Source: Escherichia coli
Lineage (GTDB): Bacteria > Pseudomonadota > Gammaproteobacteria > Enterobacterales > Enterobacteriaceae
DNA: 64,000 nucleotides
Reading direction: 5' to 3' (one strand)
NCBI RefSeq assembly: GCF_045037415.1
Contig: NZ_CP173438.1
Part shown: positions 5,011 to 12,361 of the stretch, in pieces
Numbering within the stretch: position 1 is the stretch's first letter
Layout: each line of letters starts with the position of its first letter
Position numbers and translations under genes: made by a program
The notes under the pieces: generated by a model
Database searches by the model: none
Told to the model about the DNA's origin: nothing
Seen by the model: only the letters and a program-made list of their open reading frames with translations

Positions 5011-5673
5011 TTAATTGCCAGCCATCGCCTGCTGGATAATGGGAATTGGCGTCAGTAAATGCTGGCGCATTAACTCACTGGCGCGCGCGGTATCTCGCGC
5101 CAGTACCGCCGCAGTCAGGGTCTGGTGCTGATCGTGTTTATCTTCCAGCATTTCCACCGAAAGCACTGTTCGCCGCAGCCAGATAAATCGATAACGCGCT
5201 GCCAGATCAAACAACCGTTCACGCATTTGCAGCAAATAGTAAGAACCACAGCCCGCCACAATTGCAGTATGAAACGCCTGATGACGCAGATCCCACTCAT
5301 CAAGCATTTTCTCACTGGCGTCACAGGCCTCAAGCTTACTGAGCAGATGCGCTTTTGCGAGAACGTCTGCCTCCCATTCATCGCCACCGCGGGCAATCGC
5401 CAGACTCACCAGCATCGCTTCCATATTGGCGCGGGCGTCGAAAATATCGAGCAGCTCCTGCTCTGACATAGACGCCACCCGATACCCTTTTTGATTCACC
5501 ACCGTGACCAGTCGTTCTGCCACCAGTTGCGAAAGTGCTTCCCGCAACGGCCCAACGCCAAGTGCATAACGCGATGTCAGCAAACTCATCCGTAATTTTT
5601 CATCCGGCTGAAAATTGCCGCGAATAATATCGTTCTTCAGCCAGCGATAGCCATCCAGAGAGGTAATGGTCAT
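5011..5673 (-). CDS. csiR: CsiR (GabC), GntR-family repressor of the csiD-gab operon
   Basis: ORF 5011..5691; start placed at MTITSLDGYRWLKNDIIRGNF... to give 220 aa. Confidence 0.9.
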   Translation of the reverse strand: MTITSLDGYRWLKNDIIRGNFQPDEKLRMSLLTSRYALGVGPLREALSQLVAERLVTVVNQKGYRVASMSEQELLDIFDARANMEAMLVSLAIARGGDEWEADVLAKAHLLSKLEACDASEKMLDEWDLRHQAFHTAIVAGCGSYYLLQMRERLFDLAARYRFIWLRRTVLSVEMLEDKHDQHQTLTAAVLARDTARASELMRQHLLTPIPIIQQAMAGN

Positions 5674-5693
5674 GGTGTGACTCCTGATCATTA

Positions 5694-7094
5694 TCAGCGC
5701 GTATTATGAATGGGTGTTTTTTGCCACATTATCAGCTTTTTCCAGCGAGCCATAATTGGCACGGTACAGATAATCCCAATCGCTAATAAGCCGGTGGAGA
5801 TCACTTCTAACTGTTGCGCCGGGCGGAATAGCATCACTACCAACACAAAGGTAATAAAGCCGATGACCAGCCAGGTGAGCCACGGATAAAGCCACATCCG
5901 CAGGCGAATTTCGCTTCCTTCTGCTCGCAGAATTTTGCGCATCCGCAATTGTGAAACGGCGATGACTAAATAAACCAGCAGGGCGATAGCGCCGGAGCTG
6001 TCGATCAGAAATTTAAACACCTTCGCAGGCGCGTAATAGTTCACCACCACCGTTAAGAATGCCGCGCTGGTGGAGAGTAACACCGCTACGTACGGGGTTT
6101 TACTGCGGTTGATTTTACCCATTACCGCGGGAGCATCACCGCGACGGCTTAAGGAGTAGAGCATCCTGGAAGCGGTATACAGCGCCGAGTTCAGGCAACT
6201 GGTTACGGAAAGTAATATCACGCAGTCCATGATTAATTTCGCATGAGGAATATTGAGCAATTCCAGAACCGAGCGATAAGAACCAACGGCTTTCAGCCCT
6301 GGCATATTCCACGGGATTAATGCAACAACGACAAAAATAGAACACAAATAGAAAATAGAGATACGCCAGATAACCGAGTTGGTGGCGCGAACAATATGTT
6401 TTTCCGGCGTGTCGGATTCCGCGGCGGCAATGGTGACAATTTCTGCGCCCATAAACGAGAACATGGTGATCAACATCGCGCTTAATACCGCACCGAAGCC
6501 GTTGGGCATAAAGCCGCCGCTATCCCACAATCTTGAAATCCCGCTCACGTCGGCATACGGGTAAAAACCGCTAATTGCGACGGCACCAAGGAAAATAAAG
6601 GCCAGGATAGCGATGACTTTACACAGCGCCAGCCAGAACTCAAATTCGCCGTAGTTTTTAACGCTTAATAAATTACTGCCGGTTAAGGCGAGGGTAATGA
6701 CGAGGGAAAATAACCAGATGGGAATGCCTGGAACCCATGAGTGCAGGATCATGGCGGCGATGTTGGCTTCAAGTGGGATAACCAGTACCCAAAACCACCA
6801 GTACAACCAGCCGATGGTATAGCCCGCCCAGCGGCCAATGGCTTTATCGGCATAGGTGGAAAACGAACCGGTATCGGGCGTGGCAACCGCCATTTCCGCC
6901 AACATCCGCATAATCATAACCACCAGTAATCCGGCGAACAGATAGGCCAGTAATACCGCCGGGCCCGCTTCGGCGATGGCGACGCTGGAACCGACAAACA
7001 GACTTGCGCCGATAACACCGGCAATAGACAACATGGTGACGTGGCGTGACTTCAGCCCGCCGCCTAACTCATGTGGTTGCGATGATTGCCCCAT
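5694..7094 (-). CDS. gabP: GabP, gamma-aminobutyrate permease (APC family)
   Basis: The track ORF is N-terminally extended; start placed at MGQSSQPHELGGGLKSRHVTMLSIAGVIGASLF... to give 466 aa. Confidence 0.95.
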   Translation of the reverse strand: MGQSSQPHELGGGLKSRHVTMLSIAGVIGASLFVGSSVAIAEAGPAVLLAYLFAGLLVVMIMRMLAEMAVATPDTGSFSTYADKAIGRWAGYTIGWLYWWFWVLVIPLEANIAAMILHSWVPGIPIWLFSLVITLALTGSNLLSVKNYGEFEFWLALCKVIAILAFIFLGAVAISGFYPYADVSGISRLWDSGGFMPNGFGAVLSAMLITMFSFMGAEIVTIAAAESDTPEKHIVRATNSVIWRISIFYLCSIFVVVALIPWNMPGLKAVGSYRSVLELLNIPHAKLIMDCVILLSVTSCLNSALYTASRMLYSLSRRGDAPAVMGKINRSKTPYVAVLLSTSAAFLTVVVNYYAPAKVFKFLIDSSGAIALLVYLVIAVSQLRMRKILRAEGSEIRLRMWLYPWLTWLVIGFITFVLVVMLFRPAQQLEVISTGLLAIGIICTVPIMARWKKLIMWQKTPIHNTR

Positions 7095-7182
7095 CCTGAA
7101 TCCTCTCGAAAGTGTGTCACTTGGGAGAGCGCCCCGACATTTCCCGCGTCGGGTCACGCGTTTAATTGTTATTGGTTCTTTT

Positions 7183-10073: not shown

Positions 10074-10098
10074 CGCTACATCCTGTTTTCAAAGGTTA

Positions 10099-11364
10099 TT
10101 AATTAAATGCGGCGTGTAAGGCATCCACACTACGTGCCGCTCGCAGCGTGCGTCCGGGGTTACTCTGGCTTGCCAACAGCGTTTGTACCTTGCTGACAAT
10201 ATGCGCACCAATAGGAATTGCTGATGTCGCTGCCGGGGAGGGCGCATTACAGGTGTGGATCGTGCGCGGGGTGGTGACAAACAGAAAATCGTCAATCAGC
10301 TTGCCGTCCGGCGATACCGCCTGCGCCCGCACACCGGGGGGCCAGGGCTGGAGATCGCTTAACGAAAGCCGGGGACAATACTTTTGCACCAGCCGCAGAT
10401 AGCCGCTTTTGCACAGCGAGTTTTTCATCTCGCCCAGTCCTGAGCGTAGATGGTTTTGCAGCACCCGGCGAATCCCCGACGAGCCTAAAATCTCCAGCGT
10501 GTCACTAAATGAGAAGTCGCGCTTGCGGTAGCCTTCGCGTTTGAAAGCCAGCACCGCGTTTGGCCCGACGGTCACGCTGCCGTCGATCATGCGGGTGAGA
10601 TGCACGCCCAAAAACGGCATTGCCGGGTCGGGAATGGGGTAAATCAGGTGGTTAACAATCTGGTTATGCTCTGGCGCAAGGCGGAAATACTCGCCGCGGA
10701 ACGGGCAGATAATAAAGCCCGGTTCGAGGCCGAGCATTTTCACCAGCCGGTCAGCCATCAGCCCGGAACAACTAATCAGCGTCGATGCTTCATATTCACC
10801 GCCCTGACGGGTACGTATCACCACGCCGTTTTTATGCTCACTGAGGGCGCTGACTTCGGCGTTATAAATAATCTCACCACCTCTGGCCTGGAAGATTTTT
10901 GCCATCGCCGCCGTCACTTCGCGGTAGCTGACAATGCCGCTGGACGGCACAAAAATGCCGCCAAGCCCGGTGATATTCGGTTCACGCTCGCGCAGCTCCT
11001 CGGCGTTTAACCACTCGCGCTCGATCCCGTTTGCCGCCGTGCGTTTCCATAACGCATTCATCCGTTCCATTTCGAGTTCAGACGTGGCGACCAGCATCTT
11101 GCCGCAGTTGTCGTAGCGAATGCCGTTTTGATCGCAAAAGACTTTAGTGGCGCGGTTCCCCGCCAGGCAAAACTGCGTCTTCAGGCTACCGGGCGTGTAA
11201 TAGACTCCGGCATGGATCACGCCGCTGTTGTGGCCCGTCTGGTGACAGGCAGGGCCGGACTCTTTTTCCAGCAACGCAATGCGGGCGTCAGGATAGATAT
11301 CAATCAGTTGCATGGCGGTCGACATGCCGATGATGCCGCCGCCAATAATCACAAAATCATACAT
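10099..11364 (-). CDS. lhgO: LhgO (YgaF), L-2-hydroxyglutarate oxidase/dehydrogenase (FAD)
   Basis: The track ORF extends 22 codons upstream; start placed at MYDFVIIGGGIIGMSTAMQL (Rossmann FAD-binding motif), 20 bp after the csiD stop. Confidence 0.9.
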   Translation of the reverse strand: MYDFVIIGGGIIGMSTAMQLIDIYPDARIALLEKESGPACHQTGHNSGVIHAGVYYTPGSLKTQFCLAGNRATKVFCDQNGIRYDNCGKMLVATSELEMERMNALWKRTAANGIEREWLNAEELREREPNITGLGGIFVPSSGIVSYREVTAAMAKIFQARGGEIIYNAEVSALSEHKNGVVIRTRQGGEYEASTLISCSGLMADRLVKMLGLEPGFIICPFRGEYFRLAPEHNQIVNHLIYPIPDPAMPFLGVHLTRMIDGSVTVGPNAVLAFKREGYRKRDFSFSDTLEILGSSGIRRVLQNHLRSGLGEMKNSLCKSGYLRLVQKYCPRLSLSDLQPWPPGVRAQAVSPDGKLIDDFLFVTTPRTIHTCNAPSPAATSAIPIGAHIVSKVQTLLASQSNPGRTLRAARSVDALHAAFN

Positions 11365-11383
11365 CCGCTCAATTCCTTTGCGC

Positions 11384-12361
11384 TTACTGATGCGTCTGGT
11401 AGTGGTGAGTGGCGTAAGCGAAATAGCCACGCTGACGCATCAGTTCACGGCGCAGATCCGGGTGCGGAGTAAAGCGGTCGCGACCGTGCAGCCAGAACAG
11501 GTTGTTAATCAACAGGAATTTGCCAACGGGAACGGGTACAGAAAGAGTGCCTTTACTGGTTTCAATGGCGTCCGAAAGCTCGCTCAACCACACGCCTTCT
11601 TCGAAGTCTTTCGGCTGGACAAACTGGTCGATATAGCGCATCACTGGGCGGCCCTGCTGATCGACATCGAACACCGGATGGAAGACATCTTTGCTGACGT
11701 TTTTGCTCGGCGGCGCGGCAAAGCGCATCGGACGGCGCGCCAGCGGATGGCGGAAAAAGAGGTCCAGATGTTCCCAGTCATCGAGATGCAGCAGCAGCGA
11801 GTTACCGCCCTGTATGTTTTGCTCGTCGATTTTCATCATCAGCACGTAATCAGTGATCTCTTCGACGTAAGTGCCGTCGTTGTGCAGCTCCATTACGCGG
11901 TGCGGCTGACGAAGATAGCTGTCTGAGTTATCAACATTTTTCACCACGAAACGCGCGTAATACTGACCGCTCATGGCATCGAAATTGGAACGGCCAATCA
12001 GATGCGCCACCGCCGTCGCCAGCTTCACCATCTCATCCGCCTGCGCGACATCATCGATACCCACCGCATTGATCAACAGCGCACCTTCAGCGCGGTTTAA
12101 CAGGGTCTTCAACAGCAGCGGTTGCAGCTGATTCGCACACAGATCGTCGAGAATTTTGCCTACCTGAAAACGCAGAAACGATTTGTACTCCAGCGCCTGC
12201 ACGGGCCATTCGGCAACCTGTTCGAGAAACTGTTTGGTCGTCTGTTCGGTGAAGGTGAGTTCCAGCAGACGCGGGGATTGCGCCGACGGGATGAGAGTGA
12301 ATCCGCGATAGTCCTGGCCTGAATCGACAGCGTTATTTTGTACGGCGGTCAGTGCATTCAT
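11384..12361 (-). CDS. csiD: CsiD/GlaH, glutarate 2-hydroxylase (Fe(II)/2-oxoglutarate-dependent), carbon-starvation induced
   Basis: 325-aa [40 protein letters not shown]...; recognised as CsiD. Confidence 0.95.

Follow-up and report, generated by a model that had tools for sequence, protein, structure and literature searches.

An intact csiD–lhgO–gabDTP operon with its repressor gene csiR beside an unoccupied ssrA integration site in Escherichia coli

In a 64,000-nucleotide (nt) stretch of the Escherichia coli chromosome (contig NZ_CP173438.1 of assembly GCF_045037415.1; hereafter, the window), positions 5011–12361 contain the genes of the csiD–lhgO–gabDTP operon and of its repressor, CsiR, close to ssrA, the gene for transfer-messenger RNA (tmRNA). 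The locus raises the question of whether this catabolic module is complete and controlled in the same manner as in strain K-12, and whether its position directly beside an empty ssrA integration site sets it apart. The presence, order and intactness of the genes, their catalytic motifs and the promoter/operator sequence were observed directly. The stretch is almost certainly an intact, orthologous csiD(glaH)–lhgO(lhgD)–gabD–gabT–gabP operon with csiR(glaR) on an E. coli chromosome, in the locus haplotype of B2-type strains, such as a sequence type (ST) 131 isolate, 536 and NC101. The operon is already known and ordinary, and nothing in 5011–12361 is new.

A megablast search of 5426 complete E. 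coli genomes matched positions 4500–13000 of the window at 100% identity over all 8501 bases in strain SK1144, SA186 and others; besides SK1144, at least nine strains were identical (100%) across these 8.5 kb. At least 80% of the queried stretch was found in one piece in 5340 of the 5426 genomes. The gene coordinates given below are RefSeq starts, transferred from the annotation of the identical SK1144 record. An earlier note on this DNA had placed six minus-strand open reading frames (ORFs) in 5011–12361, and both the program-made ORF list and the RefSeq annotation confirm them at those positions. The ORF list agrees with the RefSeq genes except for longer alternative starts for csiR, gabP, gabT and lhgO. 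The limits of this interval, 5011 and 12361, coincide with the stop codon of csiR and with the A of the start codon (ATG) of csiD, respectively. The current names of csiD, lhgO and csiR are glaH, lhgD and glaR, respectively. Each assignment below is based on RefSeq annotation, alignment to K-12 and family models (for CsiD also PDB structures):

5011–5673, minus strand: csiR/glaR, 220 amino acids (aa), GntR/FCD-family glutarate-responsive repressor
5694–7094, minus strand: gabP, 466 aa, permease for 4-aminobutyrate (γ-aminobutyric acid, GABA) and 5-aminovalerate, APC family
7331–8611, minus strand: gabT, 426 aa, 4-aminobutyrate (and 5-aminovalerate) aminotransferase
8625–10073, minus strand: gabD, 482 aa, succinate-semialdehyde (and glutarate-semialdehyde) dehydrogenase, dependent on nicotinamide adenine dinucleotide phosphate (NADP)
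10099–11364, minus strand: lhgO/lhgD, 421 aa, L-2-hydroxyglutarate dehydrogenase/oxidase, dependent on flavin adenine dinucleotide (FAD)
11384–12361, minus strand: csiD/glaH, 325 aa, glutarate 2-hydroxylase, an Fe(II)/2-oxoglutarate dioxygenase

The order csiD, lhgO, gabD, gabT, gabP, csiR on a single strand, as given by the ORF list and the RefSeq annotation, matches that of K-12 MG1655 (b2659–b2664), which also has the same convergent neighbor, kbp. Translation and alignment to MG1655 revealed no internal stop codons or frameshifts in any of the six genes, and protein lengths were equal to those of K-12 except that of LhgO, which is one residue shorter. Identities of the encoded proteins to their K-12 orthologues were 96.3% for CsiD, 96.7% for LhgO, 98.6% for GabD, 98.4% for GabT, 98.9% for GabP and 99.5% for CsiR. 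CsiD aligned without any indel and with 12 differences, LhgO differed at 14 positions, and CsiR differed at a single residue (Y145 vs. H145 in K-12) located outside its DNA-binding domain. Two indels of 1 bp each, neither of them within a gene, were the only ones in the 8-kb nucleotide alignment to K-12. The intact frames, the protein alignments and the exclusively intergenic indels together rule out pseudogenization. The claim of the earlier note that all six genes are intact was thus borne out both by the orthologue comparison (96.3–99.5% protein identity) and by the search for frameshifts and truncations, which was negative.

All six proteins scored above the curated cut-offs of NCBIfam equivalog models, essentially from end to end, with E-values of 1e-140 to 0 that lie far beyond chance. 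CsiD matched NF002814 with 540.9 bits (cut-off, 333) and the Pfam CsiD family (PF08943) with 501.7 bits. CsiD aligns over residues 1–325 to two solved structures of the E. coli protein (PDB 2r6s and 6gpe), has the iron ligands H160, D162 and H292, and is closer to 2r6s than to the K-12 protein. LhgO matched NF008726 (598.6 bits; cut-off, 299) and Pfam DAO (PF01266), and carries the N-terminal dinucleotide-binding motif GGGIIG at residues 8–13. GabD matched NF008415 over residues 1–482 (1081.9 bits; cut-off, 828) and Pfam Aldedh, the ALDH family (PF00171), and contains the catalytic motifs ELGG and GQTC. GabT matched NF005985 (910.2 bits; cut-off, 713) and Pfam Aminotran_3, the class III family (PF00202). 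It retains K268, which, from knowledge of E. coli GabT structures, we take to be the lysine that binds pyridoxal phosphate. GabP matched NF007566 over residues 1–466 of 466 (1059.6 bits; cut-off, 871) and Pfam AA_permease of the APC superfamily (PF00324). CsiR matched NF008576 (463.8 bits; cut-off, 218), and consists of a GntR domain (PF00392, residues 10–66), which is a winged helix-turn-helix, and an FCD ligand domain (PF07729, residues 76–206).

The identification of the stretch as the carbon-starvation glutarate/GABA module with a GntR-family repressor is therefore supported by nucleotide identity, K-12 orthologues, family models and the CsiD structure alignment, together with promoter and operator elements, which were found when the interval proposed for them, 12362–12560, was searched. 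They comprise a CRP-like site and both primary CsiR sites at the K-12 offsets, with one substitution in site 1:

12362–12559, minus strand: csiD promoter/operator region, homologous to K-12
12495–12480, minus strand: CRP-like site GCTGTTTTTGATCACA, with a perfect TCACA half-site at 12484–12480, at the K-12 offset
12457–12445, minus strand: CsiR primary site 1, TTATGCGCATTTT, at the K-12 offset
12438–12426, minus strand: CsiR primary site 2, ATGTAGATATTTT, an exact match to the consensus, at the K-12 offset

In K-12, the csiD promoter depends on the sigma factor σS and on the complex of cyclic AMP (cAMP) with CRP, and is repressed by CsiR, and glutarate relieves this repression (PMC6265302). 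Footprinting of CsiR on the csiD promoter by Knorr et al. (2018) located the primary sites TTGTN5TTTT and ATGTN5TTTT, 6 nt apart, and the probe primers of that study bracket the operator stretch (PMC6265302). The operator reads TTGTGCGCATTTT-TCAGAA-ATGTAGATATTTT in K-12 and TTATGCGCATTTT-TCAGAA-ATGTAGATATTTT in the window. Upstream of csiD, the homology with K-12 extends 198 bp from the ATG, to 12559. Within the part from approximately −135 to the ATG, 3 of the last 107 positions differ from K-12 (12462, 12461 and 12455), and the CRP-like site has two more in its weak left half. Six Escherichia sequences, when aligned, showed no variation from the TGCGCA of site 1 to GCTACGAAAT, a stretch that includes site 2. 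A scan for the sigma-70 consensus returned 5 sites, compared with 6.6 expected from shuffled sequence, and none at csiDp; the scan is uninformative, because the lack of such a site is expected for a σS- and activator-dependent promoter.

The intergenic distances, listed below from the promoter-proximal end, gave a mixed result with respect to the tight spacing that had been proposed:

csiD–lhgO: 19 bp
lhgO–gabD: 25 bp
gabD–gabT: 13 bp, from the orthologous K-12/RefSeq ATG of gabT at 8611
gabT–gabP: 236 bp
gabP–csiR: 20 bp

Tight spacing applies to csiD–lhgO–gabD–gabT and to gabP–csiR. It does not apply to gabT–gabP, where the 236 bp contain three repetitive extragenic palindromic (REP) units. 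The figure of 25 bp previously given for lhgO–gabD agrees with our measurement, that of 20 bp for csiD–lhgO was one too many, and that of 7 bp for gabD–gabT holds only if translation starts at the poorly placed ATG at 8617. This alternative start, which yields the longest ORF, lies only 1 nt after the same GGAG that precedes the ATG at 8611 by 7 nt. The REP units were read as palindromes against the known REP consensus, in the gabT–gabP spacer at 7095–7330:

approximately 7319–7285: REP unit
approximately 7274–7245: REP unit
approximately 7211–7184: REP unit

Aligned to K-12 together with some 10 coding bases on either side, this spacer had a mean column identity of 97%. An Rfam match to the REP-derived RNA naRNA4 at 7236–7275 was below threshold (40.1 bits vs. 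a gathering score of 59.5). At the other end of the cluster, the stop codons of the convergent genes csiR and kbp abut at 5010/5011, and a terminator-like hairpin for csiR (4962–4982, minus strand) lies inside the 3′ end of kbp.

We next consider the surroundings of csiD. The ssrA gene lies 683 bp upstream of csiD, and the region is composed as follows:

13045–13407, minus strand: ssrA (tmRNA), detected by ARAGORN and by the Rfam tmRNA model (295.8 bits)
13044–12893, 152 bp: native downstream region of ssrA, with 88.6% identity to K-12 DNA on the attR side of CP4-57
12916–12895, minus strand: intrinsic terminator of ssrA
12892–12560, 333 bp: AT-rich spacer without a counterpart in K-12, outside the operon
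12559–12362: csiD promoter part of the gap

The G+C content of 12400–12799 was 33.5%. Only one copy of the ssrA 3′ end was found in the 64-kb window, indicating that the integration site is unoccupied. The earlier description of the site as unoccupied was accurate in this respect, since ssrA also retains its own terminator and the gap has neither an integrase gene nor an att duplication. Apart from the 150 bp adjoining ssrA, which resemble attP regions of ssrA-integrating phages, the 683-bp gap contained no phage-like DNA, nor any integrase, and the identical SK1144 record has no annotation in the 333-bp spacer. A phage or island remnant was rejected as an explanation of the gap, given that the spacer gave no phage match, att is not duplicated and only the 150 bp by ssrA are attP-like. 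A hidden RNA or protein gene was likewise rejected: Rfam searches (E ≤ 1) returned only chance-level matches (Leu_leader, 23.5 bits; tmRNA_permuted, 20.3 bits), ORFs in the spacer did not exceed 54 aa, the longest ORF overlapping the gap was 68 aa, and none of these is annotated. As a separate observation, the 150 bp directly downstream of ssrA, including the terminator, share 83–85% identity with DNA of phages that integrate at ssrA (LLS, Ayreon and phiNP), and the corresponding region of LLS is annotated as a tmRNA pseudogene. On the basis of this match and this annotation, these phages seem to bring along a replacement for the 3′ end of ssrA and for the sequence downstream of it.

The arrangement in K-12 is different, in that approximately 33 kb (CP4-57, ypjA, pinH, ypjB, ypjC, ileY and ygaQ) separate ssrA from glaH, in contrast to 683 bp in the window. 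The short layout of the window could be a recent, derived state, in which a K-12-like 33-kb island (CP4-57 and ypjA to ygaQ) was deleted or excised in this lineage. The locus is a known variable spot, and the 33 kb of K-12 are themselves an argument for such an event, as is the mosaic identity of the operon to K-12. This identity is 96.0% overall and mosaic along 4500–12559, where 250-bp windows range from 90 to 99%, with the lowest values (approximately 90–93%) at csiD and mid-lhgO; the 3′ end of lhgO and some portions of gabP, csiR and kbp reach 98–99%. The pattern suggests past recombination near the ssrA hot spot.

The distribution of the layout argues in the opposite direction. The 333-bp spacer occurred once per genome in 1103 of the 5426 E. 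coli genomes, including EC958 (ST131), uropathogenic E. coli (UPEC) 536, NC101 and an ST95 isolate, and its identity was 98.5–100% in the strains listed, EC958, 536 and NC101 among them. The whole 683-bp gap was contiguous in 1099 genomes. The complete succession of ssrA, 683 bp and glaH was contiguous in 708 (13%), leaving 391 genomes in which the spacer was present and ssrA was not contiguous. A 24-mer from the operator was used as a query against one genome per species, and three Escherichia loci were returned. In Escherichia sp. E1V33, ssrA, the terminator, the spacer and csiD were arranged as in the window, and the spacer was 86.8% identical. In Escherichia sp. MOD1-EC7003, a different gene lies upstream of csiD, a 271-aa ORF with ankyrin-repeat-like sequence (8279–9094 of locus L006), and no tmRNA was found in that locus, including approximately 2.7 kb upstream of csiD. 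This arrangement adds a third layout to the variable spot and, like the 391 genomes, counts in favor of a recent, derived state. The 683-bp gap, however, contains no second ssrA 3′ end, integrase or phage-like DNA, the layout is common to 708 complete genomes, and its presence in the separate species E1V33 with a spacer diverged to 86.8% identity implies age. We therefore regard a recent loss of the island as unlikely. The short ssrA–csiD layout is widespread and apparently old, and belongs to a locus that is variable overall. The earlier note had singled out the position beside the unoccupied ssrA site as the one unusual aspect of the operon, a view that does not survive its occurrence in 708 of 5426 genomes and in E1V33.

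Nothing contradicts the reading of the locus as an intact orthologous operon, to which some caveats apply. The single change in the operator, G-to-A at 12455, converts TTGT of site 1 to TTAT and alters a consensus base. Upstream of approximately −135, the window diverges from K-12, and beyond −198 the two sequences are unrelated, so that distal Lrp, H-NS or UP-type elements may differ from those of K-12. The lhgO stop codon (10099–10101) is located one codon before that of K-12, and the last residue is missing (421 vs. 422 aa); because the indels in the alignment are all intergenic, this loss is attributable to a base substitution that created an early stop, and not to a frameshift. Finally, the transcription start is placed near 12419 by inference from the center of the CRP box, which Marschall et al. 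(1998) reportedly placed at −68.5. If this value applies, the CsiR sites, at about −38 to −26 and −19 to −7, would lie over the −35 and −10 regions, which fits repression by occlusion.

The operator change, in particular, allows for the same genes being under lineage-dependent regulation: TTAT in CsiR site 1 (at approximately −36), together with the replaced distal upstream DNA, could weaken repression or change promoter strength, such that expression in B2-type strains would differ from that in K-12. The altered base belongs to the consensus of a footprinted site, and the upstream divergence described above points the same way. Moreover, among the six aligned Escherichia sequences, TTAT was present only in the window and in E1V33, the other four having TTGT, and it travels with the whole upstream haplotype that these two share. 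Nevertheless, no change affects site 2, the spacing of 6 nt, the TTTT half of site 1 or any part of the core promoter, and the only substitution in CsiR lies outside the domain that contacts DNA. A 61-mer identical to that of the window, carrying the TTAT allele, was found in 975 E. coli genomes, showing that the allele is common, which would not be expected of a disruptive mutation; a further 3333 genomes matched at 95–99% identity (those listed, K-12 W3110 among them, with three mismatches) and 1054 at 90–95%. A regulatory difference of this kind thus appears quite improbable. The more specific proposal, that the upstream haplotype of B2-type E. coli and E1V33 (TTAT, the replaced distal promoter and the AT-rich 333-bp spacer by ssrA) may constitute a lineage-specific regulatory variant, is suggested by sequence comparison and is more doubtful still.

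That one or more of the genes might be non-functional despite an intact frame is extremely improbable: CsiD and LhgO do carry 12 and 14 differences from K-12, and the case for activity is made from sequence, but every catalytic or cofactor motif checked is present, all proteins exceed the equivalog cut-offs, the identical sequence occurs in many independent isolates, and CsiD is nearer to the solved 2r6s than to K-12.

Taken as an intact orthologue of the K-12 operon, the locus can be assigned a probable function. We infer the enzyme activities, the dependence on σS and CRP, the derepression by glutarate and the internal promoters from work on K-12, because the proteins are 96–99.5% identical and the promoter is nearly identical. 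GabP would import GABA and 5-aminovalerate. GabT and GabD would then convert GABA to succinate, and 5-aminovalerate, derived from lysine via cadaverine, to glutarate. CsiD is predicted to hydroxylate glutarate to L-2-hydroxyglutarate, using up 2-oxoglutarate and O2, and LhgO would oxidize L-2-hydroxyglutarate to 2-oxoglutarate, with the electrons passing to quinone. During carbon starvation, all five genes would be transcribed from the csiD promoter, dependent on σS and cAMP-CRP. CsiR would occupy the two 13-bp sites over the core promoter until released by glutarate. Separate transcription of gabDTP may be provided by promoters within the 3′ part of lhgO. Internal gabD promoters reportedly lie in that part (Metzner et al., 2004), and the 3′-terminal 500 bp of lhgO were 98–99% identical to K-12.

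Compared with other E. coli strains of its group, namely SK1144, EC958 (ST131), UPEC 536, NC101 and ST95 isolates, the window shows no difference of substance, and it is a member of that haplotype group. A more distant relative is the csiD–lhgO operon of Pseudomonas putida KT2440, which presumably lacks gabDTP and has another promoter architecture. Two reports describe, for KT2440, the same conversion of glutarate to L-2-hydroxyglutarate and on to 2-oxoglutarate, and a glutarate-responsive CsiR of the GntR family (PMC5974017, PMC6667623). According to the same reports, the KT2440 cluster, a distant orthologue, operates in parallel to a glutaryl-CoA pathway (PMC5974017, PMC6667623).

Outside 4500–13000, for which identity to SK1144 was established, the window consists of ordinary E. 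coli core genome, provided that the annotation of SK1144 carries over. Further Rfam matches were found in their usual core-genome positions:

31162–31287: Phe leader
34592–34730: RyfD
37728–42745: complete rRNA operon, with tRNA-Glu and StyR-44 in the spacer
60804–61635: AsrC, antisense to rseC

As a whole, the finding matters little beyond correct annotation, the operon being a textbook catabolic module controlled by σS and CRP that is nearly universal in E. coli. Its useful outcomes are negative ones, namely that no gene is damaged and that nothing occupies the integration hot spot at ssrA. The short ssrA–csiD layout is normal, and its appearance in other windows should not be treated as anomalous. 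The operator variant, a change of one base, offers a cheap, testable question regarding csiD regulation in K-12 as compared with extraintestinal pathogenic E. coli strains. If the upstream haplotype were indeed a regulatory variant, extraintestinal pathogenic lineages would differ in how glutarate/GABA catabolism is repressed or induced by starvation.

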